Positions 1-13,172 of a DNA stretch of 13,172 nucleotides are shown here, piece by piece. The notes beneath the pieces were generated by a model. It saw only the letters and a program-made list of their open reading frames with translations. It was not told the DNA's origin and did no database searches. Origin of the DNA: a virus (taxonomy: Duplodnaviria; Heunggongvirae; Uroviricota; Caudoviricetes); the IMG/VR virus record IMGVR_UViG_2778261453_000011, positions 1-13,172 of that record; one strand, 5' to 3'. Position numbers and translations under genes: made by a program. Every line of letters starts with the position of its first letter. Position 1 is the stretch's first letter.

Positions 1-332
1 ATTTCGCCGTCTGCCTCCGCAATGGCCACCGCCACATCCAGCACATCTTCCGCTTCACGCGTATCGTGTTTCACATCCTCGATCTCACGTAACGCCGCAC
101 GACGACCAATTTTAAAGTTCGTATCCAGCTGACCGATAATGGTTGCGCTAATCGCATTAATTTCTGACGTAAACGCGGACAGCGCAGGCTGATTACGCAG
201 TACCTGTTCGATCTTCGCTTTCTAGGAAGCCTCACATTCACCATCTGCACAGGCCACCAGGTAGGCAGCATTAATAACCGCCTGTGCCAGATCGCGTTTC
301 TCAAACTTTCCTTTTTCCGGTTAACATGACAT
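1..332 (-). pseudogene. TerB-like (tellurite-resistance-family) protein gene, 5' portion, continues beyond window start; frame contains in-frame TAA (321-323) and TAG (222-224)
   Basis: Minus-strand frame reads ...KFEKRDLAQAVINAAYLVACADGECEAS*KAKIEQVLRNQPALSAFTSEINAISATIIGQLDTNFKIGRRAALREIEDVKHDTREAEDVLDVAVAIAEADGEI, with the repeated hydrophobic-A-x-ADGE pattern of TerB-type domains. The only in-frame ATG (332-330) is followed three codons later by TAA. The alternative open frame (ORF track 71..412) translates to W/R-rich junk. Confidence 0.4.
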
Positions 333-425
333 ACCAATAACTCTTGTCTAAAAAGCCAGCAAGATAAAAAGCCAGTATTCACGACCACCAGCGTGTTTAC
401 TGTACTGCACAAGGTTTACAGGTAC

Positions 426-443
426 AAAAAAACCGCTCAGCGG
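426..443 (-). terminator. Weak intrinsic-terminator-like hairpin (CCGC-loop-GCGG followed by T7 on the minus strand)
   Basis: Plus strand has A7 (426-432) then CCGCTCAGCGG (433-443); on the minus strand this is a GC stem followed by a 7-T run. Sits at the boundary between the AT-rich island and the TerB-like gene. Confidence 0.3.
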
Positions 444-484
444 CGGGTTTAAGTTGTGTGGCGAAGTAACCACTCTTAACACGA

Positions 485-522
485 TATAATACTTTTTGCG
501 TACGCGTTAGGATTTTTATAAA
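485..522 (+). promoter_or_regulatory. Candidate sigma70 promoter region for the AT-rich cassette (perfect TATAAT at 485-490; TATAAA at 517-522; 8-bp palindrome GCGTACGC at 499-506)
   Basis: Consensus -10 hexamers in an AT-rich leader upstream of the ATG at 569; no good -35, so low confidence. Confidence 0.25.
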
Positions 523-568
523 CTATGCGTCCCCATTCTCGCTATCTTTAGTCGGTCCTGGAATACAC

Positions 569-1015
569 ATGAAAGTTAGAAGCATAGGATTTACAATAAA
601 TAACAATAACAAAAATATTAATACCGTTGACGTAATGAATGCTTTTATCAACGCATCAAACAGAGAACACAGTCGCACAGACTATACTCGTAAAATTCTC
701 ATTTCGGATGTGAATGATTTCTATTATGGATTAGTTGTCACATTCAGAAACCAAAAAAAGAACTGTAAGTCGCAATTTGTTGATGGTAAATTCCAGCTTA
801 AAATTGAAGATCTTCAAGGAAGTGACAAACTTGCTAATTTCAACTTTTTCTTAATTAAAAAATCTAATCTTTCTGGTCTCTATATGTATCACCACGGTTC
901 ATGCAGTCTGAACACTCTCTTTTCTCATTTAGAAACAATAAGTAATGAATTTATCAGAAATCAAAATAAAGAAGAAATAAAAAACTTGGTGATAAACCAA
1001 AACAAAAAGAAGTAA
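569..1015 (+). CDS. Hypothetical protein A (148 aa), N/K-rich, no recognisable motif; first gene of AT-rich cassette
   Basis: ORF in the ORF track; first ATG after the upstream stop; very low GC compared with flanking phage DNA; weak SD (GGAA). Confidence 0.55.
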   Translation: MKVRSIGFTINNNNKNINTVDVMNAFINASNREHSRTDYTRKILISDVNDFYYGLVVTFRNQKKNCKSQFVDGKFQLKIEDLQGSDKLANFNFFLIKKSNLSGLYMYHHGSCSLNTLFSHLETISNEFIRNQNKEEIKNLVINQNKKK

Positions 1016-1059
1016 CTGCAATAAATAAAAAATACAAAGAAAGACTGACTTTCAGCCTT

Positions 1060-1494
1060 ATGACAAATAAAAACAACATTCAGAGTGTTTTATGTCAATT
1101 CAAAGAGATTAAAAGCACAAGCTTTAAATTTAATTATATAGATTTTAAAGGTGGACCAATGACTGCGCTTGAACAATTTGTTAACACCACCACAATAGAT
1201 ATGAATTTTAATTCTAGCGACAGAACAAAAGTGCAACAACTATCTCAGAATCTTTCAAATATTTATAATTCTATGAGTGGAGTTGCTAAAGCACAGGTTA
1301 TTGCAGTAAACCATGCAGGAATAGAAAAAACCATTGATTTTATGAACTGCCCTGTTTTTTTTGAAACATACGATTTCGATATAATTGCCGATAAAGTCAA
1401 TGGATTGACAAACGATAATTATACAACAAACCCTGTTTTTGATATGATAAAAGAAGAAATGCTGAACGGGACGAATAAAAATGCCTTTATATGA
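1060..1494 (+). CDS. Hypothetical protein B (144 aa; alternative start ATG 1159 with SD AAGGTGG giving 111 aa)
   Basis: ORF in track; 3' end overlaps the next gene by 14 nt (ATG 1481 / TGA 1492-1494), indicating translational coupling and an operon. Confidence 0.55.
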   Translation: MTNKNNIQSVLCQFKEIKSTSFKFNYIDFKGGPMTALEQFVNTTTIDMNFNSSDRTKVQQLSQNLSNIYNSMSGVAKAQVIAVNHAGIEKTIDFMNCPVFFETYDFDIIADKVNGLTNDNYTTNPVFDMIKEEMLNGTNKNAFI

Positions 1495-2029
1495 ATGGCT
1501 AATAAATAAAAGATTGAGGTATCAGTACCTTACACTGCTTGCATTCTCGATCCTGGCATTGCTTGCACTTTACCTATTGTACAGAAACACACCTAAAGTA
1601 AGTGTTAACTTTTTTGAGTTTTATCATAAAAACTTACGAGGCTATCTCTTCTCCGGTTTTATTTCCGTGGGCTCATTTTTATTGAGCCTGCATACCTTTG
1701 TCATAATAAATTTACGCGATAAGGTTTTTGCAACTCAGGAATATAAGGAAATTTATAGCATTGCCACTGGTATACCTATTGACAAAATCAATGATAGTGT
1801 ACTTTATAAACCTTTAGACAATTTATCCTCATTTATTAATACATCAATATTATGTTCTATCACAACAGCAATTGCACAATTCACTATTGGACTTTCAACT
1901 AATTTATATGCATGCTTATTTTGCGTATGGCTTGCAATACTAACGGTATTTCTTTTATTACATTGCCTCATCATAATCAGACAAAATATTAAAATTTTAT
2001 TAAAGCAACAGAGAAAAAAAGGGGGGTAA
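1481..2029 (+). CDS. Hypothetical integral membrane protein C (182 aa), four predicted TM helices, basic C-terminal tail
   Basis: Hydrophobic stretches YLTLLAFSILALLALYLLY, YLFSGFISVGSFLLSLHTFVII, SILCSITTAIAQFTIGLSTNLY and ACLFCVWLAILTVFLLLHCLIII; tail RQNIKILLKQQRKKGG; coupled to the upstream ORF. Confidence 0.7.
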   Translation: MPLYEWLINKRLRYQYLTLLAFSILALLALYLLYRNTPKVSVNFFEFYHKNLRGYLFSGFISVGSFLLSLHTFVIINLRDKVFATQEYKEIYSIATGIPIDKINDSVLYKPLDNLSSFINTSILCSITTAIAQFTIGLSTNLYACLFCVWLAILTVFLLLHCLIIIRQNIKILLKQQRKKGG

Positions 2030-2038
2030 TTCCCCCTA
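2019..2038 (-). terminator. Intrinsic terminator immediately after Q (GGGGG-loop-CCCCC followed by T8 on the minus strand); possibly bidirectional
   Basis: Plus strand A7-GGGGGG-TAATT-CCCCC-T (2014-2037). On the minus strand the GC stem is followed by an 8-T run, directly downstream of the Q stop (2042-2044). The stem overlaps the stop codon of protein C. Confidence 0.55.
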
Positions 2039-2041
2039 ATA

Positions 2042-2383
2042 TTACAACATTGAAAGCACACCATCCAGAAAACCAAGAGCTGTTTGCAACTCTTTTCTTA
2101 TTGTCCCATCAGAACACTTCTGCTTCTTTGCAATAGTTCTTAGTGAGATGCCGATAACAAAATGAGCAATAACCAACTCATACTCTTCGGGCTTATATTT
2201 CCGCAATCGCGCAACACAGCTGTCAATCATGATTCCTTCATCATCATCGCATTGTTGGCGTGTTTTCTTTCCATGAGGTAGTAAACCTTTAAACCCTGCA
2301 GCAACAGGCTGCCAGTCCACACCACTGTTATCTGCTGCAGCCCATGCACCCCAGCGGTCCAATACTTCATACATATCACGCAT
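2042..2383 (-). CDS. Late antiterminator Q (small Q family, as in phage 21 / DLP12 QuuD)
   Basis: Translation MRDMYEVLDRWGAWAAADNSGVDWQPVAAGFKGLLPHGKKTRQQCDDDEGIMIDSCVARLRKYKPEEYELVIAHFVIGISLRTIAKKQKCSDGTIRKELQTALGFLDGVLSML; position at the end of the nin-like region after RusA; SD GGAGA 6 nt before ATG 2383 (ORF track extends to TTG 2398). Confidence 0.7.
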   Translation of the reverse strand: MRDMYEVLDRWGAWAAADNSGVDWQPVAAGFKGLLPHGKKTRQQCDDDEGIMIDSCVARLRKYKPEEYELVIAHFVIGISLRTIAKKQKCSDGTIRKELQTALGFLDGVLSML

Positions 2384-2400
2384 CAACTTTCTCCACAAAA

Positions 2401-3395
2401 TCAGGCCAGCACGCCAATTGCCAGTGCACGATCGATAAAACGAAATATCAGCTCCAGCTGGGAGCCATACTTCTCTTCAAATGCCACGGTATCCGCATGC
2501 AGCTCGTCGTGATGCTTTCTGCACAAAGGCAACACAAAGAGGTCATGCGCTTTTGTAGCCATTCCACCCTGACCGTGACCTATCAGGTGGTGGGGATCAT
2601 CAGCAGGTTTTCCACAACATGCGCACGGCTGCGTCTTAACCCATCGCGTGTACTTTTCATTAACCCAGCGGCGACGTTTTGGGCGTAACATAAAAGACTC
2701 CGGCGACTCCGGATCCACTTTCAGCGCCAGCACCTTTTTCGCTTTATCCTGGATGATGCTGGTGGCAGGAACCGAAGGCACAAGGTCACTTTCCCGGGTG
2801 ACAGACGGCACAACAGGCTTCGGTAATCTCAGTGCCTTACGGGCTGCACTTTCCGGTAAGGCATCCGCCAGATCATTACGAATCAGCCACCAGCACAGTT
2901 CCGGCATTGTCACAACGTGACTGTCATCAAAACCGAGATCCCGACGCACGACAGACAACACCCAGCGGGCACAGTTATCCGTTGCCATTGATTCCAGCCG
3001 TTCCGTGAACTGATCGCGCAGCTGGTTATCGCAGTGCCAGCACAGACGGATTGCGCCCGGCGCGTGTCGCATTGTGGTCATGTTCTCGCTGTGCCAGTCG
3101 GAATGAGGCCACTGACAGCCTTTTTCACGAAGTAACCAGCTTTCAAGACATTCCACGCCACCAGCACGACGGATCACTGCCTCATTGCGGAACACGGCCC
3201 GAACGGCAGGATCATCCGCCAGCGGTTGTGATGCCGCCGGAACGGCACCACTGGCGAAAGATGAATAACGTTCCGGCTCAGGCTCCAGCAGGACACGCCC
3301 TGCATAAACAGGGGCATCAGCTCTGAACCTGGCCTGAACAATACGATCCCCATACGCGGGGCAATTTCAGGGGTCAGTAGTGCTCTCACGGTCAC
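2401..3395 (-). CDS. DUF968/YdfU-like protein with C-terminal Cys/His-rich (HNH-like) motif; apparent -1 frameshift near its 5' end
   Basis: Main frame (to 3367) reads ...CACCGKPADDPHHLIGHGQGGMATKAHDLFVLPLCRKHHDELH... and is protein-like for ~57 codons upstream of its first possible start (GTG 3195). The only start with an upstream stop is GTG 3395 in the other frame; frames meet at a G4 run (3358-3361). Confidence 0.55.
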
Positions 3396-3396
3396 C

Positions 3397-4239
3397 TCAA
3401 TGAACGGTATCGAGCAGCTTTAACAGCTCAGGGAATCGGGATTCGAAGAAATGCGGCTGCGTCTCGCGCGGATTTGCAGGACTGGTGATGTTCTTGCCGA
3501 ACATGCAGCCTTTCGCCGTCAGCGACCAGAATTTTTTGATGTTGTTAATCGCGGTACGGCTGTATCGTTCGCGTTGTTCAACGATCCCCAGCTTCACCAT
3601 CTGGTGATATGCCTGATTAGCCGTCAGGCGGATACCATACTGTTTCAGCAGTGCACTCAGCGACAGCGTGGGGCGACTTGAGCCATCAGGCGCGTCAGCA
3701 GGAGCATCAATGGCATAGCGCGGTGCCAGATTCGGTAAGCCAACAGCCTCCTGAAGCTTCTGACAGGCTCCAAGCACTGATGAGTTAGACAGGTTTAATT
3801 CCCGGCGCATAAAGTCCAGCAGGATCACGCCAGCCTGCATCTTGTCAGCAGCCTGCCCGGATAATTTTTCCGGTGTGCTGGTTACCATATCGAAAGTACG
3901 GATCACCTTCAGATGGAATGACGGGCTGATCCACATTGCATAGGCATACACCAGTTCCTTGCAGACATACGTTCCTCCATTCCGCCCTTCTATTTTACTT
4001 ACTGGTTTACTACCCAAATTTTGGGTAGTTTCATTGAATGAACCGACACCCAAATTTTGGGTATCGATCAATTCCTGAACCAGCTCAGTAATCTGTTGGC
4101 TGGAAAGAAACTTTCCCGGCTCCTTAGTTCTGGCATTTGCACCAGATGCAACAGCAGCCCGATGCAGATCGTTCAGGCTGTAACGCCCATAAGCATCACG
4201 ACGAACTTCAATACCATCAATGACCATCAGATTATTCAT
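3397..4239 (-). CDS. KilA-N domain protein (antirepressor-like)
   Basis: N-terminus MNNLMVIDGIEVRRDAYGRYSLNDLHRAAVASG...GTYVCKELVYAYAMWISPSFHLKVIRTFD matches the KilA-N pattern; SD AGGAGA 8 nt upstream of ATG 4239 (ORF track extends to 4272). Confidence 0.7.
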   Translation of the reverse strand: MNNLMVIDGIEVRRDAYGRYSLNDLHRAAVASGANARTKEPGKFLSSQQITELVQELIDTQNLGVGSFNETTQNLGSKPVSKIEGRNGGTYVCKELVYAYAMWISPSFHLKVIRTFDMVTSTPEKLSGQAADKMQAGVILLDFMRRELNLSNSSVLGACQKLQEAVGLPNLAPRYAIDAPADAPDGSSRPTLSLSALLKQYGIRLTANQAYHQMVKLGIVEQRERYSRTAINNIKKFWSLTAKGCMFGKNITSPANPRETQPHFFESRFPELLKLLDTVH

Positions 4240-4258
4240 ACTTCGTTTCTCCTCTTGA

Positions 4259-4648
4259 TCAGGCGGCTGCACCCGCCGTTTTCTCGTACTTACTGATAGT
4301 GATCTCGACCTTCCCTTCCGGGATAACCGGTCCCCACTCCACCAGCATTCTTTTCACCTGACTGTCGTCTTCCCACACACCCGCGTGGGTCAGGGCGTCA
4401 AACAGCGCCTTGTTATAGTTGTCCAGATCGCGGATCCGGTTATCCGGAGGAAACAACACGATCTCCACTGAAGCAGGTGCCGACGTTGGTTTCGGCAGAC
4501 GACGTAACTGCTCAACTATTGCTGCACACGCCGCGCTCTGGAATTTTCGCCCCGCCGCGCTTATCAGGCTCTTACCTGCAAACGCCCCTTTGTTGGGGTG
4601 TCGCCAGTACGTGTTCACGCTGGGCGGAAAAGGCAGGATCAGCTTCAT
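4259..4648 (-). CDS. rusA: RusA-family Holliday junction resolvase
   Basis: MKLILPFPPSVNTYWRH...DLDNYNKALFDALTHAGVWEDDSQV matches the RusA family signature (LPxPPSxN, DxDN, DD); ATGA start/stop overlap with the upstream gene. Confidence 0.8.
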   Translation of the reverse strand: MKLILPFPPSVNTYWRHPNKGAFAGKSLISAAGRKFQSAACAAIVEQLRRLPKPTSAPASVEIVLFPPDNRIRDLDNYNKALFDALTHAGVWEDDSQVKRMLVEWGPVIPEGKVEITISKYEKTAGAAA

Positions 4649-4971
4649 GCTTTCAGGCCCCTCTCATGTAACCAGTGGGTTGCACGCAGCCTTGCGTTTT
4701 CCTCACCGGCAAGCAGTGAGCGGATAATCCCGACCGCCTCGCTGTCGTCGTCCTTCACCGCGGTATGAAGCGTTATCCCCCGGGCCACGCCACGCTTTAT
4801 CGTGATGAAGCCTTTTTTCTCCAGTGCGCGAAGATGCTCCACCGCTGCATTCACTGAACGGTATCCCAGCATGGTTGCCACCTCCTGATTGGTTGGCGGG
4901 AAGCCACGTTCTTTCTGATAAGAAATCAGCATATCCAGCACCTGCTGCTGGCATTGAGTTAACGTCGTCAT
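4645..4971 (-). CDS. LexA N-terminal DNA-binding-domain-only protein (winged HTH; no S24 peptidase domain)
   Basis: LTQCQQQVLDMLISYQKERGFPPTNQEVATMLGYRSVNAAVEHLRALEKKGFITIKRGVARGITL resembles the LexA DNA-binding domain as I recall it ([55 protein letters not shown]...); only 108 aa; ATGA overlaps at both ends. Confidence 0.7.
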   Translation of the reverse strand: MTTLTQCQQQVLDMLISYQKERGFPPTNQEVATMLGYRSVNAAVEHLRALEKKGFITIKRGVARGITLHTAVKDDDSEAVGIIRSLLAGEENARLRATHWLHERGLKA

Positions 4972-5621
4972 GCCACCATCTCCCTGACCAGTTTTTCCGC
5001 CTGCTGGCGAACCTGCGCCAGAAACGCCTCACCACATGCCTCAAGTTCATCGCGCCCGATGTAGCTGATTGCCGGTCCCTTCCAGGTCTTGTCAAAAACA
5101 GCAATAGCACCAGCGAAAAAAGCTCCTGTCGGTACCTGCTTCTCGTCTTTCGGGATAAACCATACAGGCAGTTCAAAACCAATACGCCCGCGAATAAAAG
5201 CAATATGATCTGCATCTTCCGGCCACCACACTTCGCTGGTGGCAGCTTTGATCAGGAAAACATAGCGCCCGCCCTTATCACGCATGGCACTGGCATGTTT
5301 CATGATGTAACGCATGCCGGTGATGTATTGCCCCTCATGCTGACTGGCGCGGCTGTATGGAGGATTACCAAAGGCAGCACCTTTAAGCTCCGCAAGGCGT
5401 TCTGACCAGTCATGCGCCAGCGCGTTGTCTTCCGCCGTGTAATACGCGGCACATTTGGCGTTATCACCGTCAGTGAACAGATCCAGAACAAACGGGCCAA
5501 ACAGGGTGTTAATTCCCCAGAAAATGTTGTCCGGCGTGCGCCACTGATCACCCACTTCCTTCAGTTCATGGGCTGGTTTGTTCCGCAGTTCCACCAGCTC
5601 CTGGCAATATTTATTACTCAT
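4968..5621 (-). CDS. Phage Dam-type N6-adenine DNA methyltransferase (orphan)
   Basis: NPPY motif (AAFGNPPYSRA), size ~217 aa, location in the replication/nin module; start ATG 5621 preceded by GGGGG (ORF track extends to 5666). Confidence 0.7.
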   Translation of the reverse strand: MSNKYCQELVELRNKPAHELKEVGDQWRTPDNIFWGINTLFGPFVLDLFTDGDNAKCAAYYTAEDNALAHDWSERLAELKGAAFGNPPYSRASQHEGQYITGMRYIMKHASAMRDKGGRYVFLIKAATSEVWWPEDADHIAFIRGRIGFELPVWFIPKDEKQVPTGAFFAGAIAVFDKTWKGPAISYIGRDELEACGEAFLAQVRQQAEKLVREMVA

Positions 5622-5715
5622 TAAGCCCCCACGTAAAAAGCATCCGCAATGTCTCCGGAAGTACAACCCGGATGGGCTTCAATGAATTTCTGAACGTCAT
5701 TTAACAGACTCATGA

Positions 5716-6708
5716 TCACCCCCTGAATCCTGCCGGGATCTGGCTGTAGTCCACGTTGTCGTAACTGGCTTTGAAGTACGGGTCTTCACGTTTTTCTGTG
5801 TGCGTGCTGACGGACGGCGATAAGCGCAGGGAAAGCTCATCCCATTTTTCCCGCAACTTCGACGGGCTGAGCACGTTACGGCACCAGAACGGATCGCGGC
5901 TGACGCGGCTGTACATCTCGCAGATTTGTTTGTGAGTACGACCATCCTGCACACACATCAGGCGAATTTCGTTTGCCCATGCTGTCCAGTTCGGTTCTTT
6001 GGGACGAACCACCTCGCCGTCACATTCGGCGGCCTGCTCGTACAGGGCGATGATTTTTTTCCAGAGCCACTGTGCGCAGGTCAAATCATCCTGCGTTCCC
6101 CACTGGCGCTTTTTAGGGCTGAATACAACCGCATCAGGATGGCGAGTTAAAAACTCCTGTTCAGCCGTTTGCGTGTCCGGTTGCGAAGCGTCCGGACGAG
6201 AAGAGGTTTTATTCTCTGTAGTAATCTCTGTTGTATTCTCTGTAAGATCATTGGGCCATTTTGACCCGATGACAGCGTGTCGTTTTGAACCAATGGATCG
6301 TATCATTTTGCGCCCATCCATCAGGTCACTTTGACCCGATGGAGAAGTGCATTTTGACCTGATGGATTCGTTCACTTTGACCTCTTCTAAAAGCTCACTT
6401 TCATAGTTGATCGTGTAGAAGTTGGTCATGTCACGCTTCGATTTATTGAGTTGCTCGCGACGCAAAACCCCAAGTGATTTCAGGCTTGCAAATGTGCGTT
6501 TCAGAGTGGACTCTGACCAGAACGGAAACTGCTCCAGCCACTGTTCTGTCGTGTTATAAACCCAGCGAATTCCGCCATGCTCAGTGCCTGAATTCGTTTC
6601 ATTCAGCCAGTAATGAAGCTGCTGCAACACAATTGCCTCATTCAGACCAATACGGCATGCAAGATCACGATTTATCACAATGGGCTGGGATGTCATTAAC
6701 AGGCTCAT
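5716..6708 (-). CDS. Replication initiator (lambda O-like replisome organiser) with iteron origin inside its coding sequence
   Basis: 330 aa; N-terminal HTH-like region ([24 protein letters not shown]); six ~23-bp-spaced iterons in the middle of the gene; position downstream of the cro/cII-like genes. Confidence 0.7.
   Translation of the reverse strand: MSLLMTSQPIVINRDLACRIGLNEAIVLQQLHYWLNETNSGTEHGGIRWVYNTTEQWLEQFPFWSESTLKRTFASLKSLGVLRREQLNKSKRDMTNFYTINYESELLEEVKVNESIRSKCTSPSGQSDLMDGRKMIRSIGSKRHAVIGSKWPNDLTENTTEITTENKTSSRPDASQPDTQTAEQEFLTRHPDAVVFSPKKRQWGTQDDLTCAQWLWKKIIALYEQAAECDGEVVRPKEPNWTAWANEIRLMCVQDGRTHKQICEMYSRVSRDPFWCRNVLSPSKLREKWDELSLRLSPSVSTHTEKREDPYFKASYDNVDYSQIPAGFRG
6257..6384. 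repeat. Iteron array (origin of replication): 6 copies of C(A/G)(T/C)TTTGACC(C/T)GATGG at ~23-bp spacing
   Basis: Copies start at 6257, 6281, 6304, 6327, 6350 and 6373; adjacent 12-bp-period TCTCTGT x3 at 6213-6243. Confidence 0.65.
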
Positions 6709-6877
6709 GACCGACCTCTATTTCCCTGAATTTACGACGAAACTGTTCGAGCGGACTGAAGCATTCATGTTCATAGCCTTCACGGAGGTAGATAACCCGT
6801 TGTGTTTCCGGCTCCCAACGAATGACTCTGACGGGCACTCCGTAGTGATCTTTGAACCAGCGGTTAACTTGTCGCAA
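6665..6877 (-). CDS. Hypothetical small protein (70 aa; TTG start with SD AGGAG) or C-terminal part of a frameshifted ~130-aa gene
   Basis: Globular-looking translation ...[69 protein letters not shown]; frame open upstream to 6904. Confidence 0.5.
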
Positions 6878-7056
6878 AGGACTGTCTCCTTCTGCCGGTT
6901 GAAATCACCCACAGCCCACTCTGCAAAGCTGTGGGTTACAATTTCCCTGTCACCTGGTACATTCACTGCATAGCAATACTCCACCTTCGCTTTTCCACCC
7001 GGTACAGGAAGCGCAATCAGTTGCGAGCGACGGTAGTGTGTTGTTAAACTGTTCAT
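6718..7056 (-). CDS. Hypothetical protein (112-aa ORF); the first ~50 codons look coding, the rest may be out-of-frame read-through
   Basis: ATG 7056 overlaps the YdaT-like stop (ATGA) with SD GGAGA upstream; the C-terminal 60 residues are S/N-rich, low-complexity and overlap the 70-aa ORF. Confidence 0.45.
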
Positions 7057-7610
7057 GCGTTAGTTTCTCCACAACCAGAAGCAATCGACGCCACGACGCC
7101 CGGAGCTGCACACTCGCGGGCGTTACTCTTTTCTGGAGCGCAGAAGATTTTGTAGACCAGTGCTGCATGCTCCTGGAGCTTCGAAATTGAGAGATACAGT
7201 TCGTCGTTAATTGCTGTCTTCTCATGCGGTTCCACTACACCGTCTTCGATTGCTGAACGAATCTGTCTGGAATAACTGCCGATCTGTTCAATGACTTCCA
7301 GCAGACGCTGGTTAATATCGGCGTTGTCCACATCCTCGACGTCAGGAAGAGACACAAAGACGCCATTTGCAGACTGCGCCACAGCGTCAGCAATGAAGTG
7401 AGTTCCACCAGCACGTTGTAAAATCATTGCCCATCCCAGCGGGAAAATCTGATCGCCATCGGCACGAAGGCGATTGAATAAAGCGTTCTCTGTTACATCC
7501 AGCCACTCAGCTGCTTCAGCGTAACCACCCGGCAACGCCGCGATAGTTTTTCTGACAGCTTTCACGTACCACTCAGGCTGTTTTTCTACTTTCCAGTGAT
7601 GCTTACCCAC
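7053..7610 (-). CDS. YdaT-like protein (CII-position early regulator)
   Basis: Immediately downstream of the cro-like gene; strong SD AAGGAG 6 nt before GTG 7610 (ORF track extends to ATG 7643, overlapping cro). Confidence 0.6.
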
Positions 7611-7632
7611 GGCTATCTCCTTAAAACTGTGG

Positions 7633-7881
7633 TTACTTTCCATCTGATAAGTCTTTAATCTTTTGAAAAATATCTGGACGTAATTTTTCTTTTGATACGC
7701 CAGTGGTCATTTCAATGAATATCGAGAGCTTTGCAGGGGGACGCTTTTCTCTGTTCAACCAGTTCCAGACATGTTGTTGCTTTACTAAACGACCACTGCT
7801 GGCTGTGAGCTTCCGAGCCAATTCTGATTGACCACCAGCCAGAGCGATTGCCTCTGATAAGGCTAATTGCTCAGGTGTCAT
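7633..7881 (-). CDS. Cro-like / YdaS-family HTH regulator
   Basis: 82 aa, MTPEQLALSEAIALAGGQSELARKL...IEMTTGVSKEKLRPDIF; divergent from the cI-like gene across the operator region; SD AGGAGA. Confidence 0.7.
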   Translation of the reverse strand: MTPEQLALSEAIALAGGQSELARKLTASSGRLVKQQHVWNWLNREKRPPAKLSIFIEMTTGVSKEKLRPDIFQKIKDLSDGK

Positions 7882-8018
7882 AGCTTTCTCCTATCTGTAA
7901 GTAGTAAAGTTGTTGATAACTTCGATTATACAACTACAACAACTTTTATCACAACTTTTAGATGTTGGAAAGCTAAAACATAAAGTTGTAACCTCAATAA
8001 AAACGAGGGGGATATGTT
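7882..8018. promoter_or_regulatory. Right-operator-like region: divergent promoters with repeated AAAGTTGT / ACAACTTT half-sites
   Basis: AAAGTTGTTGATAAC (7906-7920), ACAACAACTTTT (7936-7947), ACAACTTTT (7951-7959), AAAGTTGTAACC (7982-7993) between the divergent cro-like and cI-like genes. Confidence 0.6.
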
Positions 8019-8705
8019 GTGAAAACATTGGCAGAAAGACTAAAAAGCGAAAGAGAAAAAGCAGGAATGAGTCAGGCGCAACTAGCTGAAAAAATTGGAC
8101 TTTCACAACAATCCGTAGCGAAAATCGAGAATGGAGAAACTCAACAGCCTCGGAAAATTAAAGAGATTGCTAAAGTGTTAGGGGTTTCTCAAAAGTGGTT
8201 GCAATTGGGCATTGAGGATAACGCGTCTTTCCCAAACCTTGTTGTAAAGGAGGCTGAAAGTACAACATTAGATCCTGACATTTTTGCAAACATTCCTGTC
8301 CTAGATGTCGAGTTATCAGCGGGTAATGGATGTTTGGCTGAAATAGTTGAATCAACTGTAGACTGGTTCCCGCTAAGAAGGATTGATTTAAGGAAAGCTG
8401 GTGTATGTGTCTCCAATGCAAAGATCGTAAAAATTTGGGGTAATAGTTTACTACCTGTACTTAACAATGGAGATTTTGTTGCTGTTGATGTTTCCCAAAC
8501 AGTTCCTATTCGTGATGGGGATCTTTATGCTATACGTGATGGCGTATTACTTAGAGTTAAAATATTGATCAATTTACCTGACGGTGGTCTGATTCTAAGA
8601 AGTTTCAATAAAGATGAGTATCCAGATGAAATACTCACCTTCGAAGATAGGCGTTCCAGAATTCACGTTATAGGTAGAGTATTCTGGTCATCGCGCACTT
8701 GGTAA
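8019..8705 (+). CDS. cI-type repressor: N-terminal XRE HTH plus C-terminal S24 (LexA-like) autopeptidase domain
   Basis: HTH MSQAQLAEKIGLSQQSVAKIENGE; Ala-Gly cleavage site (LSAGNG); Ser in GNSL and Lys in RVK as catalytic dyad candidates. Confidence 0.85.
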   Translation: MKTLAERLKSEREKAGMSQAQLAEKIGLSQQSVAKIENGETQQPRKIKEIAKVLGVSQKWLQLGIEDNASFPNLVVKEAESTTLDPDIFANIPVLDVELSAGNGCLAEIVESTVDWFPLRRIDLRKAGVCVSNAKIVKIWGNSLLPVLNNGDFVAVDVSQTVPIRDGDLYAIRDGVLLRVKILINLPDGGLILRSFNKDEYPDEILTFEDRRSRIHVIGRVFWSSRTW

Positions 8706-8732
8706 TGCATCAAAAAACACTCCTTCAGAAAT

Positions 8733-8837
8733 TTAGTTACCATTATTACCCGCCTTTTCAATCTTCCTCCCGTGATTTGAGAGTTTCCAATCACGGAAGG
8801 AAAGTGTCCATTGTGTAATTAAAAGCGCATCGTCCAT
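8733..8837 (-). CDS. Possible small ORF (34 aa, MDDALLITQWTLSFRDWKLSNHGRKIEKAGNNGN) convergent with cI
   Basis: Perfect SD AAGGAGG 4 nt upstream of ATG 8837; contains a 12-bp inverted repeat (8767-8778 / 8789-8800); no homology recognised. Confidence 0.2.
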   Translation of the reverse strand: MDDALLITQWTLSFRDWKLSNHGRKIEKAGNNGN

Positions 8838-8879
8838 ACAACCTCCTTTTTTGATAACCCTAGCCCCCATTTCACATCC

Positions 8880-8945
8880 GTCAAAACCACATAAAGTTGT
8901 TGATAACAACCAAAACAACAACTAGATTACAACTTAAAGATGTTG
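8880..8945. promoter_or_regulatory. Left-operator-like region: second copy of the operator repeats, promoter of the plus-strand early operon
   Basis: Exact 15-bp AAAGTTGTTGATAAC at 8893-8907 (identical to 7906-7920) followed by ACAACAACT and ACAACTTAAAG. Confidence 0.5.
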
Positions 8946-9038
8946 CAGTAACGAACAGGCAGGACGCCCACGAAGTAGCCGCCGGTGGCGTATGAATGAC
9001 CGGATGATTCGTTAAATACTATGTGTAAGAGAGCGCAA

Positions 9039-9242
9039 ATGAACCGTTATTTCACATGCTCGTTTTGTGGCGCAAACGAGCTGCAGGCAAAAAAAATCAT
9101 CGCCAAAGGCGGAAAAGATGAAGTTGCTATCTGCTCTGAGTGCGTAGTCTTGTGTGTCGGGGCATTAATCAATATCAGCACAACTATTCATTTCACACCA
9201 AATGAGAATGCGCCTTTAGATGCGCGGAAATCTGGAGGTTAA
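9039..9242 (+). CDS. Small protein with ClpX-type N-terminal zinc-ribbon (C4) domain
   Basis: YFTCSFCGANELQAKKIIAKGGKDEVAICSECVVLCVGAL matches the ClpX zinc-binding domain pattern as I recall it ([32 protein letters not shown]); first gene after the left operator. Confidence 0.6.
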   Translation: MNRYFTCSFCGANELQAKKIIAKGGKDEVAICSECVVLCVGALINISTTIHFTPNENAPLDARKSGG

Positions 9243-9331
9243 AGAACAAAATGAAAGTCCAGATTTTAAACAATAGTGGTGAAGTCGTTTGGGCGTAAAA
9301 CATGACCGCGCGTAGACCAAGGGAGGAAAAA

Positions 9332-9508
9332 GTGGGAATAGTTAGAAATCAAGCAGATATATTGAAAATCAGCTCTGAATTGCTTGGAGTTTTGAAAAGT
9401 GAGCTCACCACACATGGCATCGAGCCCACTGACGAAAATTTAAGTTGGGTTTTGTCGATTATTCAACAATCACTCAAGCCCAGCCTCAGCAAACTTTTTA
9501 TCGAGTAG
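9332..9508 (+). CDS. Hypothetical small protein (58 aa from GTG 9332)
   Basis: SD GGGAGG 5 nt upstream of the GTG; 3' end overlaps a convergent minus-strand ORF by 39 nt. Confidence 0.35.
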   Translation: MGIVRNQADILKISSELLGVLKSELTTHGIEPTDENLSWVLSIIQQSLKPSLSKLFIE

Positions 9509-9661
9509 TGCTTCGAACTTATCGTAAAGCTTGCTTATGTCGTCTATCGGGTTTTCTGACGTACTGTAATTTTTATCTGATGTCATGGCAGCAGTCTGAT
9601 ATGCAGTGTGAGTCTTAACCGATAGTTGGAATAAATAAAGAATTTTTTCTTCTTTGGTCAT
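9470..9661 (-). CDS. Hypothetical small protein (63 aa, MTKEEKILYLFQLSVKTHTAYQTAAMTSDKNYSTSENPIDDISKLYDKFEALLDKKFAEAGLE)
   Basis: SD AAGGAAA 7 nt upstream of ATG 9661; AT-rich; opposite orientation to the surrounding operon. Confidence 0.4.
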   Translation of the reverse strand: MTKEEKILYLFQLSVKTHTAYQTAAMTSDKNYSTSENPIDDISKLYDKFEALLDKKFAEAGLE

Positions 9662-9780
9662 AACTATTTCCTTCTTGGCTATATGAAAACACCAAGATAC
9701 CACCGAGCCTGAAGTGGTGAAAAGACAGGCACATAACAGCTAAGTATTTTCAACCAGAGAGAATCCTTAGCGTTGTGGTG

Positions 9781-10060
9781 AATGCGGCTCAGCGCACGCG
9801 GGTTAAGGTTGAGGCTGACAGTCGACCTTCTGTGGATACCCACCCGTCTGGTGTGCAACCTTCGCCAGGCACCGGGAGGCACCCGGCACCACAACTTTAT
9901 GCTGTGTGTAGTCCTGGCGGTACCAGTTTGTACCCTTGCTTCCGGCTGGTACCGCTCTTTTTACAAAACAGAGAAGAGCATCACCGGACGACGGGCTCAT
10001 AACCCAATCCATCCGGGCGGCTGCCACCGCAGGTGTTCTTCTCTGTTTTGTGGAGAAACT
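9781..10060 (+). ncRNA. Candidate structured noncoding RNA / regulatory element (GC-rich; nested inverted repeats; internal intrinsic terminator)
   Basis: GC-rich island between AT-rich flanks; GGCACC x3 (9859-9883); 10-bp perfect stem plus T-run (9917-9962); 14-bp perfect IR ACAAAACAGAGAAG / CTTCTCTGTTTTGT (9963-9976 / 10038-10051); in-frame translation is R/C/H/W-rich junk. Confidence 0.3.
9917..9962 (+). terminator. Intrinsic terminator (GCGGTACCAG - 19-nt loop - CTGGTACCGC - TCTTTTT)
   Basis: 10-bp perfect inverted repeat followed directly by a T-rich run on the plus strand. Confidence 0.55.
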
Positions 10061-10099
10061 AACCGACCTTGCAGGGTCGATATGATGAGGAGCAGCAAA

Positions 10100-10462
10100 A
10101 TGGCTAGCGAACGCAGTACTGATGTGCAGGCATTTATCGGGGAGCTGGACGGCGGCGTATTTGAAACCAAAACCGGCGCAGTTCTCAGTGAAGTCGCTTC
10201 CGGTGTGATGAACACGAAAACCAAAGGTAAGGTCTCGCTCAACCTGGAAATCGAACCATTTGATGAGAACCGTGTGAAAATCAAACACAAACTCTCATAT
10301 GTTCGCCCAACTAACCGCGGGAAAATTTCCGAAGAAGACACCACCGAAACGCCGATGTATGTCAATCGCGGTGGTCGCCTGACTATTCTGCAGGAAGACC
10401 AGGGACAATTACTGACTCTTGCCGGTGAACCTGACGGAAAACTCCGCGCAGCAGGTCATTAA
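10100..10462 (+). CDS. yfdP: YfdP-like hypothetical protein (120 aa)
   Basis: SD GAGGAG 7 nt upstream of ATG 10100; MASERSTDVQAFIGELDGG...; position and size match the first gene of the CPS-53 yfdPQRS cluster (from memory). The ORF track's longer 9782 start is rejected. Confidence 0.6.
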   Translation: MASERSTDVQAFIGELDGGVFETKTGAVLSEVASGVMNTKTKGKVSLNLEIEPFDENRVKIKHKLSYVRPTNRGKISEEDTTETPMYVNRGGRLTILQEDQGQLLTLAGEPDGKLRAAGH

Positions 10463-10527
10463 TATCGTTCTTAATTAACTGATTATTTATCTCATCACTG
10501 AATATCTTAATATAGTGAGGACTTATT

Positions 10528-11352
10528 ATGTCTCAGAACTTAGACGCAACCGCAATTAATCAAATCCATGCCCTTATTTCTGCTCAGGGTGTTAATGAAA
10601 TTATCAGTAAGATTGGTGCCGATGCTGTGGCATTGCCTGAGAATTTCCGCATTCATGATCTGGAAAAATTTAATTTAAATCGCTTCCGTTTCCGTGGTGC
10701 GCTTTCCACTGCCTGCATCGATGACTTTACCCGTTATTCTAAAGATCTTGCAGATGAAGGCACCCGCTGCTTTATCGATGCCGATAATATGCGAGCCGTC
10801 AGTGTGCTTAACCTGGGTACTATTGATGAACCAGGTCACGCAGATAACACCGCCACTCTCAAACTGAAAAAGACAGCACCGTTTTCTGCTCTGTTGTCTG
10901 TTAATGGCGAGCGTAACTCCCAGAAGTCACTGGCAGAATGGATTGAAGACTGGGCCGACTACCTTGTGGGCTTTGATGCTAATGGTGACACCATTCAGGC
11001 AACCAAAGCGGCTGCGGCAGTCCGTAAAATCACGATTGAAGCAAACCAGACCGCTGATTTTGAAGATAATGACTTCAGCGGCAAACGCTCCCTGATGGAA
11101 TCTGTCGAAGCGAAGACCAAAGACATTATGCCAGTGGCATTTGAATTTAAATGCGTTCCGGTTGAAGGCCTGAAAGAACGTCCGTTTAAATTACGCCTCA
11201 GCATTATCACTGGCGATCGTCCTGTACTGGTTCTGCGCATTATTCAGCTGGAAGCAGTGCAGGAAGAAATGGCTAACGAATTTCGTGATCTGCTTGTTGA
11301 GAAATTCAAAGACAGCAAAGTAGAAACCTTTATTGGTACTTTCACCGCCTGA
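10528..11352 (+). CDS. yfdQ: YfdQ-like protein (DUF2303 family), 274 aa
   Basis: Long clean ORF with SD GTGAGGA; size and position before the HD-domain gene match CPS-53 YfdQ (from memory). Confidence 0.7.
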
Positions 11353-11364
11353 TTTCATTACTGC

Positions 11365-11386
11365 AAATGCCCCTGCGGGGGCATTT
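11365..11386. other. Symmetric hairpin AAATGCCCC-TGC-GGGGGCATTT between yfdQ-like and yfdR-like genes (possible attenuator or terminator)
   Basis: 9-bp stem with 3-4 nt loop directly after the yfdQ-like stop codon. Confidence 0.3.
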
Positions 11387-11480
11387 ATGGAAACGTAATT
11401 AACTCAATAATCGCCGGATGGTGCGGGATTCCTTTTACCCGAATTCAGCGCGGTGCAGCGCATATAAAGTGGAGAACAAA

Positions 11481-12017
11481 ATGTCATTTATTAAAACTTT
11501 TTCCGGGAAGCATTTTTATTATGACAAGATAAATAAAGACGACATCGTGATTAACGATATCGCGGTTTCCCTTTCAAATATCTGTCGCTTTGCAGGACAT
11601 CTTTCACACTTCTACAGTGTCGCCCAGCATGCGGTGCTTTGCAGCCAGCTGGTGCCGCAGGAATTTGCTTTTGAAGCGTTAATGCATGATGCAACAGAAG
11701 CGTATTGCCAGGATATTCCCGCTCCACTGAAACGCCTTCTTCCTGACTATAAACGGATGGAAGAAAAAATAGACGCCGTAATCCGTGAGAAATACGGGTT
11801 ACCCCCGGTTATGAGCACGCCTGTGAAATATGCCGATCTCATCATGCTGGCAACCGAACGCCGCGATCTCGGGCTTGATGATGGCTCTTTCTGGCCAGTA
11901 CTGGAAGGTATCCCGGCAACAGAAATGTTCAAAGTTATTCCTCTGGCTCCGAGCCATGCCTACGGGATGTTTATGGAGCGCTTTAACGAGTTATCGGAGT
12001 TACGCACATGCGCATGA
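11481..12017 (+). CDS. yfdR: HD-domain phosphohydrolase, YfdR-like 5'-deoxynucleotidase (178 aa)
   Basis: H...HD motif (SVAQHAVLCS ... ALMHDATEAY); SD GGAGA before ATG 11481; 178 aa matches YfdR as I recall it. Confidence 0.8.
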   Translation: MSFIKTFSGKHFYYDKINKDDIVINDIAVSLSNICRFAGHLSHFYSVAQHAVLCSQLVPQEFAFEALMHDATEAYCQDIPAPLKRLLPDYKRMEEKIDAVIREKYGLPPVMSTPVKYADLIMLATERRDLGLDDGSFWPVLEGIPATEMFKVIPLAPSHAYGMFMERFNELSELRTCA

Positions 12018-12358
12018 ATGTTTTCGAAATGGAAGGGTTTCTTCGCGGGAAATGTGTACCGCGAGATCTGAAAGTGAATGAAACAAATGCTGAGTATCTG
12101 GTGCGTAAATTCGATGAAGTACGTGCTGAGGCTCGCAACGAGGGTATTAACTATACCGCAAGCCGTCTTGCTGCTGCTTTCAATCACGGATTTATCAATA
12201 AGCCTTTGGCTGAAGTTTTCGACGTTACACGCATGATTCTGTCAGCGAAAGAAGAGTTGGCTAATGAACCGCATCCGATTGATGGCCTGTCTGGTGAATA
12301 TGCGGAGAAATCCCTTGAAGAATGGGCGGAACAGATTCGCAAAGGAGGCAACCAGTGA
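12008..12358 (+). CDS. yfdS: YfdS-like hypothetical protein (116 aa)
   Basis: Overlaps the yfdR-like stop; SD GGAG 8 nt upstream; followed by an overlapping GTG start of the next gene. Confidence 0.65.
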   Translation: MRMNVFEMEGFLRGKCVPRDLKVNETNAEYLVRKFDEVRAEARNEGINYTASRLAAAFNHGFINKPLAEVFDVTRMILSAKEELANEPHPIDGLSGEYAEKSLEEWAEQIRKGGNQ

Positions 12359-12840
12359 CTGGACATGCAGCAATCCTCGACATGTGCTGTGGCAGTCGCA
12401 TGTTCTGGTTCGATAAGAAGGACGACCGGGCGATATTTAGCGATATCAGAAAGGAAGAGCACACATTGTGTGATGGACGGCGCCTGATTATCAGTCCTGA
12501 CCTGATAGCTGATTTTCGTGCACTACCATTTGCAGACGCATCTTTTTCGATGGTTGTATTCGACCCTCCGCATCTTGAGCGTGTCGGTGATAACGCCTGG
12601 ATGGGAAAGAAATATGGACGGCTGAATAAAGACACCTGGCGTGATGATTTGCGGCAGGGATTTAAAGAAGCCTTTCGTGTGTTGCGTCCATACGGCGTTC
12701 TGATTTTTAAATGGAATGAAACGCAAATACCTGTTCGCCAAATATTGGTACTGACCGACAGAAAGCCTGTTATCGGTCAACGAACAGGAAAGGGTGACAA
12801 GACCCACTGGATTATTTTTATGAAGGAGGGCAACCAGTGA
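12355..12840 (+). CDS. Small SAM-dependent (probably DNA) methyltransferase, DPPH motif (orphan)
   Basis: Motif I-like AILDMCCGSRMF and motif IV-like VVFDPPHL; SD AAAGGAGG 6 nt before GTG 12355, which overlaps the yfdS-like stop (GTGA). Confidence 0.65.
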   Translation: MTGHAAILDMCCGSRMFWFDKKDDRAIFSDIRKEEHTLCDGRRLIISPDLIADFRALPFADASFSMVVFDPPHLERVGDNAWMGKKYGRLNKDTWRDDLRQGFKEAFRVLRPYGVLIFKWNETQIPVRQILVLTDRKPVIGQRTGKGDKTHWIIFMKEGNQ

Positions 12841-12989
12841 GCAAGATTGATTATCAGGCGCTACGGGAACGTTATTCACCTAAGCCAGTACCTGAATGCT
12901 CTGTTTGTGGCGAGGAAATGTCAATACAGCGTATATCTGGAGCACATGTCGTTTATGCCTGCTCCAGTTATGGTGGTGATGGAGATTAG
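12837..12989 (+). pseudogene. Small CxxC-containing ORF truncated by the IS2 insertion (stop codon supplied by the first 3 bp of IS2)
   Basis: GTG 12837 overlaps the MTase stop; MSKIDYQALRERYSPKPVPECSVCGEEMSIQRISGAHVVYACSSYGGDGD then TAG = first bases of the IS2 inverted repeat. Confidence 0.4.
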
Positions 12990-13172
12990 ACTGGCCCCCT
13001 GAATCTCCAGACAACCAATATCACTTAAATAAGTGATAGTCTTAATACTAGTTTTTAGACTAGTCATTGGAGAGCAGATGATTGATGTCTTAGGACCGGA
13101 GAAACGCAGACGGCGTACCACACAGGAAAAGATCGCAATTGTTCAGCAGAGCTTTGAACCGGGGATGACGGT
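12987..13172 (+). mobile_element. IS2 (IS3 family) left end, partial; continues beyond window end
   Basis: Left inverted repeat TAGACTGGCCCCCTGAATCTCCAGACAACCAATATCAC from 12987, then insC starting [31 protein letters not shown], both matching IS2 as I recall it. Confidence 0.85.
13078..13172 (+). CDS. insC: IS2 transposase OrfA (InsC), 5' part
   Basis: ATG 13078; N-terminal peptide identical to my recollection of IS2 InsC. Confidence 0.85.

Follow-up and report, generated by a model that had tools for sequence, protein, structure and literature searches.

A phage-encoded LexA DNA-binding-domain protein without the autoprotease domain, located between dam and rusA in the early-right operon of a lambdoid prophage

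In a 13,172-nucleotide stretch of DNA from a virus of the class Caudoviricetes (IMG/VR record IMGVR_UViG_2778261453_000011, positions 1 to 13,172; hereafter the window), which represents the immunity and early-right portion of a lambdoid prophage, a small gene located between those for a Dam methyltransferase and a RusA Holliday-junction resolvase was found to encode the DNA-binding head of LexA without the S24 autoprotease domain. We refer to the 108-residue product of this gene (window 4645-4971) as LexD. Both the identification of its LexA domain and the junctions that join the gene to its neighbors are far beyond chance. We tentatively favor a model in which LexD is a RecA-insensitive, dimeric LexA surrogate that is made from the early-right operon and occupies CTGT-type operators. 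The gene and the parts of its product are as follows:

4645..4971, minus strand: LexD gene, a 108-residue open reading frame with an ATG start that matches PF01726, PHROG 362 and mEp460_046
4765..4971, minus strand: winged helix-turn-helix, codons 1-69, with helices 6-22, 28-35 and 40-53 and wing strands 56-58 and 66-68 (AlphaFold2)
4750..4764, minus strand: flexible linker, codons 70-74, in which residues 72-74 have a predicted local distance difference test score (pLDDT) below 50 and are disordered
4663..4749, minus strand: helical hairpin, codons 75-103, with helices 75-88 and 93-103 (AlphaFold2 pLDDT 88-90)

LexD is a member of the LexA_DNA_bind domain family (PF01726) and of PHROG 362. 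Its residues 1-65 covered the Pfam profile from end to end (positions 1-65 of 65, E=3.2e-19, 68.9 bits vs a cutoff of 23.7), and residues 1-107 aligned with positions 1-105 of 106 in PHROG 362, a family of phage "transcriptional repressor" proteins of about 106 residues (E=2.8e-59). The protein mEp460_046, annotated as "LexA DNA binding domain protein", is 99% identical to LexD. Alignment with E. coli LexA gave 42% identity across 90 residues (BLASTP, E=2e-22), and the matches of LexD in the PDB were to LexA only (1LEA, 1JHH and 3JSO, E about 1e-15). The lexA equivalog profile of NCBIfam (TIGR00498) was aligned along positions 1-91 of 203 with a score of 70 bits, below the cutoff of 110.95, and therefore the C-terminal half of LexA is missing from LexD. 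No match to the S24 peptidase domain (PF00717) was detected in LexD; the protein stops at residue 108 and the next open reading frame is that of RusA. Thus, with no S24 domain, a sub-cutoff equivalog score and no conserved cleavage site, LexD is not a LexA orthologue. Because the S24 domain is absent, LexD should not be triggered to cleave by RecA*.

These results agree with the initial annotation of this DNA, which had described a LexA N-terminal winged helix-turn-helix without the autoprotease domain, hence an uncleavable protein. The same annotation had also suggested that the protein might bind SOS boxes or phage operators and serve as a dominant SOS modulator or as a decoy. Evidence bearing on SOS-box binding is weighed below. 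We found no support for a decoy role: the C-terminal domain of LexA is the site of dimerization and of contact with RecA*, and LexD lacks the domain that engages RecA*. A defense-system reading was also rejected, as the PADLOC models gave only a weak CARF-associated winged-helix match (17.8 bits, E=5e-4), which we read as generic similarity among winged helix-turn-helix domains.

To describe the fold, we built an AlphaFold2 model of LexD from 19 family sequences (mean pLDDT 82.8). The top Foldseek match of this model was the LexA-DNA complex 3jso, with a root-mean-square deviation of 0.9 Å over 68 residues and 48% identity, and the numbering of LexD is that of E. coli LexA through position 69. 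Helix III of E. coli LexA contacts DNA through Ser39, Asn41, Ala42, Glu44 and Glu45 (PMC3091678). LexD has Ser39, Asn41, Ala42, Val44 and Glu45 at these positions, such that four of the five are kept; His46 and the wing motif Arg64-Gly65-Ile66 are likewise unchanged from LexA.

Selection on the gene was analyzed with 54 distinct alleles, which comprise those of the window, of phage mEp460 and of IMG/VR loci sharing the RusA of the window. The ratio of nonsynonymous to synonymous polymorphism (pN/pS) was 0.03 in the DNA-binding head, where pS was 0.09, and 0.42 in the linker and tail, with pS at about 0.07-0.09 in both regions alike. The DNA-binding domain is under strong purifying selection; the head is nearly frozen, and therefore DNA binding is what selection maintains. 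At codon 55 (window 4807-4809), in the first wing strand, the allele of the window encodes Phe. Since Val is found here in 52 of the 54 alleles, as it is in E. coli LexA, Phe55 is a rare variant. It could be argued from the absence of the gene in some prophages (see below) that LexD is what remains of a captured lexA gene, decaying and without function. This explanation is very improbable: the pseudogene or relic view is effectively refuted by the selection data, the reading frame was intact in 54 of the 56 distinct sequences recovered, and the wide occurrence and conserved synteny described below also argue against decay.

The helical hairpin of residues 75-103 is likely a dimerization module. 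Relatives as distant as 41-50% identity retain its pattern of hydrophobic residues, in which Ala97 and Leu101 are invariant. When the tail was searched alone, no family was matched, and NCBIfam gave no match at E<=10. HMMER continued the alignment with LexA through the linker and the cleavage-site region (LLAGE vs VAAGE), and the E. coli alleles of LexD have an Ala88-Gly89 pair, which lies inside a predicted helix and is not conserved across the family. We considered the tail as a relic of the LexA cleavage-site region and rejected this as independent evidence, as the tail alone was matchless and the Ala-Gly pair unconserved. A further explanation, which we regard as quite improbable, is that the tail binds protein and that LexD titrates or recruits a host factor (e.g., RNA polymerase, ClpXP or LexA). 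Such a role would fit the faster evolution of the tail relative to the head, the existence of tailless relatives, such as the 71-residue form of an Edwardsiella phage, and the course of the HMMER alignment through the linker and cleavage-site region of LexA. However, the tail resembles nothing when taken by itself, the Ala-Gly pair is not a family trait, and LexD has no counterpart of the LexA C-terminal domain used for dimerization and RecA* contact.

The features that define the genomic position of LexD are given here:

4968..4971, minus strand: ATGA overlap of the Dam stop and the LexD start (sequence)
4645..4648, minus strand: ATGA overlap of the LexD stop and the rusA start (sequence)
4973..4984, minus strand: Shine-Dalgarno-like GGGAGATGGTGG within the 3' end of dam (sequence)
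4968..5621, minus strand: phage N6-adenine DNA methyltransferase, Dam (PF05869, E=1e-45; TIGR01712, E=1e-76)
4259..4648, minus strand: RusA Holliday-junction resolvase (PF05866, E=6e-15; PHROG 34)
7925..7954, minus strand: pR-like promoter TTGTGA-18-TATAAT upstream of cro, the sole promoter-like site upstream of LexD on this strand
2042..7881, minus strand: early-right operon, with cro (YdaS-like), cII-like, DUF4222, O-like replication protein, Dam, LexD, RusA, KilA-N, DUF968/HNH and Q
2020..2037, minus strand: strong intrinsic terminator just past Q, at the operon end (prediction)

The location of the gene between dam and rusA had been noted in the initial annotation together with translational coupling. 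Both junctions are indeed ATGA overlaps, and Shine-Dalgarno-like runs precede them (GGGAGA at -13 to -8 and GAGAGGGG at -17 to -10); coupling of translation is what this arrangement suggests. The likely start of Dam is the ATG at 5621, in agreement with a 654-nt homologue in mEp460, while the mechanical open reading frame extends to a TTG at 5666. A gene for a cI-type repressor with a helix-turn-helix and an S24 domain lies at 8019-8705 on the plus strand. Promoter prediction on the minus strand gave no internal promoter for LexD in the interval from 7925 to 2042. Because there is one pR-like promoter and no other on this strand before the terminator after Q, LexD should be a delayed-early gene that is silent in the repressed lysogen and made after induction or infection, as its position implies.

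LexD is a common gene and is already annotated in phages and prophages (as "LexA DNA binding domain protein" and in PHROG 362). A tblastn search of 50,697 phage records (E<=1e-5) found it in 61 records, including mEp460, SfV (orf42), SfII, SfIV, cdtI, 15 Stx2c-converting phages and Stx2a_WGPS2. By megablast at a minimum of 95% identity, it was present in 2223 of 5426 complete E. coli genomes (41%), with up to four copies per genome, and the carriers include O157:H7, O104:H4 and O145 strains. Relatives at 47-51% identity occupy the same operon slot with 4-nt overlaps, and synteny is conserved down to about 45% identity. The gene order is replication gene, LexD, RusA in mEp390; Dam, C5 methylase, LexD, RusA in Logan contig L087; and PerC, Dam, LexD, followed by a reverse gene, RusA, DUF968 and antiterminator, in NCBI genome L088. 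Other relatives adjoin DUF968/HNH genes. A description of the gene as unusual cargo for a nin-type region is therefore not appropriate, given this frequency, its existing annotation and the shared slot in relatives. In a profile-free scan of 1.8 billion representatives, 5243 matches were obtained, and most of the closest 150 were shorter than full LexA; short LexA-domain proteins were also found across many other phage groups.

A PerC-family (YfdN-like) regulator gene of about 400 bp was located between dam and LexD in many prophages (e.g., NZ_CP143627.1), and in L088 the PerC-family gene lies at 3590-3826, upstream of dam. PerC-type proteins are regulators of virulence loci in enteropathogenic and enterohemorrhagic E. 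coli.

How could a LexA head without its C-terminal domain function? The isolated DNA-binding domain of LexA does not repress sulA-lacZ, whereas its fusion to any homodimerizing domain does (the system of Dmitrova 1998, PMC7160566). LexD consists of a head, a flexible linker and a small conserved helical module, as in the repressing fusions, which makes the LexA-surrogate model reasonable. In addition, the fixed half-site spacing of LexA has been attributed to wing contacts between the heads and not to the C-terminal domain (PMC8565304). We propose that LexD would be transcribed from the pR-like promoter in the operon cro-cII-rep-dam-lexD-rusA-kilA-DUF968-Q, with its translation coupled to that of its neighbors. 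The two-helix hairpin, in place of the S24 protease and dimerization domain, would then dimerize the protein, and the paired heads could engage CTGT-type half-sites arranged as an inverted repeat and spaced, as in LexA, by contacts between the wings. As S24 is absent, RecA* would be unable to trigger cleavage of this dimer. When the early operon is turned on by infection or induction, LexD might thus occupy LexA-type operators, most probably host SOS boxes, and might hold SOS-controlled functions off or return them to the off state. Candidate targets would be SOS genes of the host and functions that LexA controls in rival prophages or on colicin plasmids.

We also detected several metagenomic proteins of 140-220 residues (P0139, P0150, P0152, P0172, P0131 and P0136) that have two tandem LexA_DNA_bind domains and no S24 domain. 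These would be single-chain pseudo-dimers of the LexA head, and such natural proteins fit with a need for two heads. To our knowledge, tandem LexA_DNA_bind proteins without S24 have not been described.

Several observations weigh against the surrogate model; they concern a DNA-contact residue, candidate binding sites, loci that lack the gene, and precedent. Position 44 is Glu in 14 of the 17 closest full-length LexAs and in none of the 13 tail-bearing relatives of LexD, which have Val, Ala, Phe, Thr, Leu or Tyr. This family-wide loss of Glu44 at a base-contact position may alter the specificity of LexD. The scan for CTGT-N8-ACAG boxes proposed in the initial annotation did not provide sites: the window contains no perfect SOS box, and its seven one-mismatch boxes, all within coding regions, are at chance level (4.6 expected). 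We compared CTGT-Nx-ACAG spacings of 0-20 in the window with 200 dinucleotide shuffles, and none was clearly enriched. Spacing 13 occurred twice (8482 and 12767, both coding), equal to the largest count in a shuffle, the shuffle mean being 0.22. Among 80 IMG/VR loci sharing the same RusA, the density of SOS boxes was 0.56 per 10 kb with LexD and 0.70 without, and no association of boxes with LexD was seen across this set, in which only 8 loci are without the gene and many are near-duplicates. Finally, no experimental study of the lambdoid LexD family was found in the literature on truncated, phage and LexA-like proteins of lambdoid and Shiga toxin (Stx) phages.

The 8 loci without LexD (L018, L022, L033, L042, L049, L055, L069 and L078) have the Dam stop joined straight to the rusA start. 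This junction was also seen in an E. coli prophage whose remaining sequence is about 97% identical to that of the window; in the prophage of E. coli SCPM-O-B-9504, the single GCATGA of the join lies at L006 23427-23430. A GCATGA hexamer borders LexD at both ends (4645-4648 and the 4968-4973 region), and the variants keep exactly one copy, with the break falling precisely at this hexamer. LexD is thus a dispensable, self-contained accessory module, and these loci illustrate cleanly how a phage operon can gain or lose a gene where stop and start codons overlap. Isogenic variants that carry or lack LexD occur naturally. Because the precise LexD-less loci retain both flanking genes intact, neither Dam nor RusA requires LexD.

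The same loci bear on the possibility that LexD is a non-transcriptional, DNA-binding accessory to the Dam or C5 methyltransferase, to RusA or to the DUF968/HNH nuclease. The methyltransferase/LexD/RusA neighborhood is kept with its 4-nt overlaps at 47-51% identity (mEp390, L087 and L088), and the DUF968/HNH neighbors of other relatives would fit as well. However, in about 10% of loci an intact dam runs directly into an intact rusA, the upstream neighbor varies (Dam, PerC/YfdN, replication protein or C5 methylase), and the nin gene order of lambdoid phages is kept by modular exchange regardless of function. We consider an accessory role improbable.

A stronger competitor is a protein of the same fold with diverged specificity, that is, a phage-specific transcription regulator, repressing or activating, whose own operator would be located in phage or host DNA; we judge it nearly as likely as the SOS-surrogate reading, though it too stays below an even chance. 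It has a direct precedent. GIL01 gp6, from a tectivirus of Bacillus thuringiensis, is a truncated homologue of LexA that recognizes a site of its own and turns on the late promoter P3 (PMC6182141), and it is the only phage protein of LexD's kind that has been characterized. The loss in the LexD family of Glu44, which is otherwise conserved in LexAs, the LexD-LexA identity of only 42-48% and the failure of SOS boxes to track LexD in related loci all point in this direction. On the other hand, Ser39, Asn41, Ala42, Glu45, His46 and the wing are kept in LexD, and no candidate operator was seen in the window, where no CTGT palindrome is clearly enriched and intergenic inverted repeats are unremarkable (the intervals 1-600, 7860-8030 and 8690-9320 showed only a likely cI/Cro operator-type repeat and a terminator-like hairpin). 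A late activator like gp6 is also not needed here, because Q already turns on lambdoid late genes. No sequence link of LexD to gp6 was found, as the 61 matching records of the tblastn search (E<=1e-5) name enterobacterial hosts or phages only, with no Bacillus phage or tectivirus among them; the LexA-domain proteins of Tectiviridae are similar to LexD only at the level of fold.

Returning to the surrogate model, any LexA-type sites recognized by LexD would probably be those of the host SOS regulon or lie beyond the region sampled. A more specific version, in which LexD is a RecA-proof mini-LexA that re-occupies host SOS boxes vacated by cleaved LexA after induction or infection, is less likely than not. 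LexD would then shut down the SOS regulon as well as LexA-controlled rivals, such as colicins, LexA-dependent antirepressors of co-resident prophages and SOS-induced defenses. Such a phage function against the SOS response would resemble that of plasmid PsiB and might affect both Shiga-toxin output and competition among prophages. It would be present in about 40% of E. coli strains, with Stx2c phages and the prophages of O157:H7, O104:H4 and O145 strains among its carriers. More generally, an uncleavable LexA surrogate would represent a widespread phage override of the host DNA-damage response, of relevance to the induction of Stx phages, prophage competition and SOS mutagenesis.

SOS boxes do occur in related phages. 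In mEp460, two lie upstream of a dinI-like gene, one within the repressor gene and one at a methylase gene downstream of Q. The box inside the coding region of the mEp460-type S24 repressor, about 170 nt from its start, is a perfect consensus-like site (TACTGTTTTTACATACAGTA / ...TATATACAGTA) that is far too good for chance. It was found at L001 4548-4563 (mEp460, JQ182728 about 31972) and in 30 of the 80 IMG/VR loci; the repressor allele of the window is without it. SOS boxes between Q and the lysis genes were found in mEp460 (L001 13599-13614), in 17 of the 80 IMG/VR loci and in Klebsiella phage ST846-OXA48phi9.1 (L003 3996-4011). In mEp460-like phages one such box coincides with the beginning of a "DNA methylase" gene, and in the Klebsiella phage another precedes two genes in reverse orientation, which suggests LexA-controlled morons at the Q-lysis hotspot.

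Other parts of the window and of a related prophage also deserve mention. An AT-rich block at window 500-2030 (30-32% GC vs about 50% in the flanks) is on the plus strand, pointing against the Q operon, and lies just past the terminator. Two of its open reading frames, 569-1015 and 1060-1494 (plus strand), match the N- and C-terminal halves, respectively, of the 308-residue family PHROG 2802 of unknown function, and because each matches one half they represent a split or two-part gene. The third, 1481-2029 (plus strand), encodes a hydrophobic protein of 182 residues with no Pfam, PHROG or PADLOC match. This block at the Q-lysis hotspot looks like a moron or, possibly, defense cargo. At the left edge of the window, the minus-strand segment 1-359 corresponds to the 5' portion of a gene of the TerB family (tellurite-resistance-like) in the related prophage of E. 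coli SCPM-O-B-9504 (L006 17928-18359). That prophage has tRNA-Ile and two tRNA-Arg genes between Q and TerB in place of the AT-rich block of the window, and it is located at a truncated gene for tRNA-dihydrouridine synthase, with the lexA-dinF locus of the host a few kb away.

On the other side of the window, a 73-residue open reading frame at 9021-9242 (plus strand) corresponds to the ClpX C4-type zinc finger only (PF06689, E=1e-10; the RefSeq homologue has the same name). Together with LexD, it makes two host regulators of which this prophage carries a "domain-only" copy. LexA fragments and lambda O are degraded by ClpXP, and a protein limited to the ClpX zinc finger might interfere with the recognition of substrates or adaptors by ClpX. 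The early-left region (12322-12840 and 10528-12017, plus strand) encodes another DNA methyltransferase, either an orphan or type II-like (PADLOC MTase_II, E=3e-74), next to homologues of YfdQ (DUF2303) and YfdR (5'-deoxynucleotidase), an arrangement shared with the CPS-53 prophage of K-12.

As a sequence feature, LexD is ordinary and already known, and phage LexAs reduced to the DNA-binding domain have a characterized precedent in GIL01 gp6. Its own family, PHROG 362 or the NCBI "LexA family transcriptional regulator" (mEp460_046, SfV orf42, cdtI and Stx2c phages), is 94-99% identical over the full length, under names that are predicted only; LexD of the window differs from it only by the rare Phe55. 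Like LexD, GIL01 gp6 is phage-encoded, consists essentially of the DNA-binding domain, and is early and trans-acting on DNA (PMC6182141); however, it has no helical-hairpin tail, is derived from a Gram-positive LexA and activates at P3, whereas LexD occurs in a lambdoid phage controlled by Q. The engineered LexA-DBD fusions (DBD, DNA-binding domain; the two-hybrid system of Dmitrova et al. 1998 with strains SU101/SU202; PMC7160566) likewise have a LexA head, a linker and then a dimerization module, which in LexD is putative. These fusions are laboratory constructs with a wild-type head, whereas LexD is natural and its head differs at about half of its positions. With E. coli LexA itself (1LEA, 1JHH and 3JSO), LexD shares a winged helix-turn-helix that is 42-48% identical, superimposes at 0.9 Å and has common numbering to position 69. 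In contrast to LexA, it lacks the Ser119/Lys156 dyad, the LexA-type dimer interface and the response to RecA*, has Val44 and a hairpin after the linker, and is encoded in a phage early operon instead of the lexA-dinF locus.

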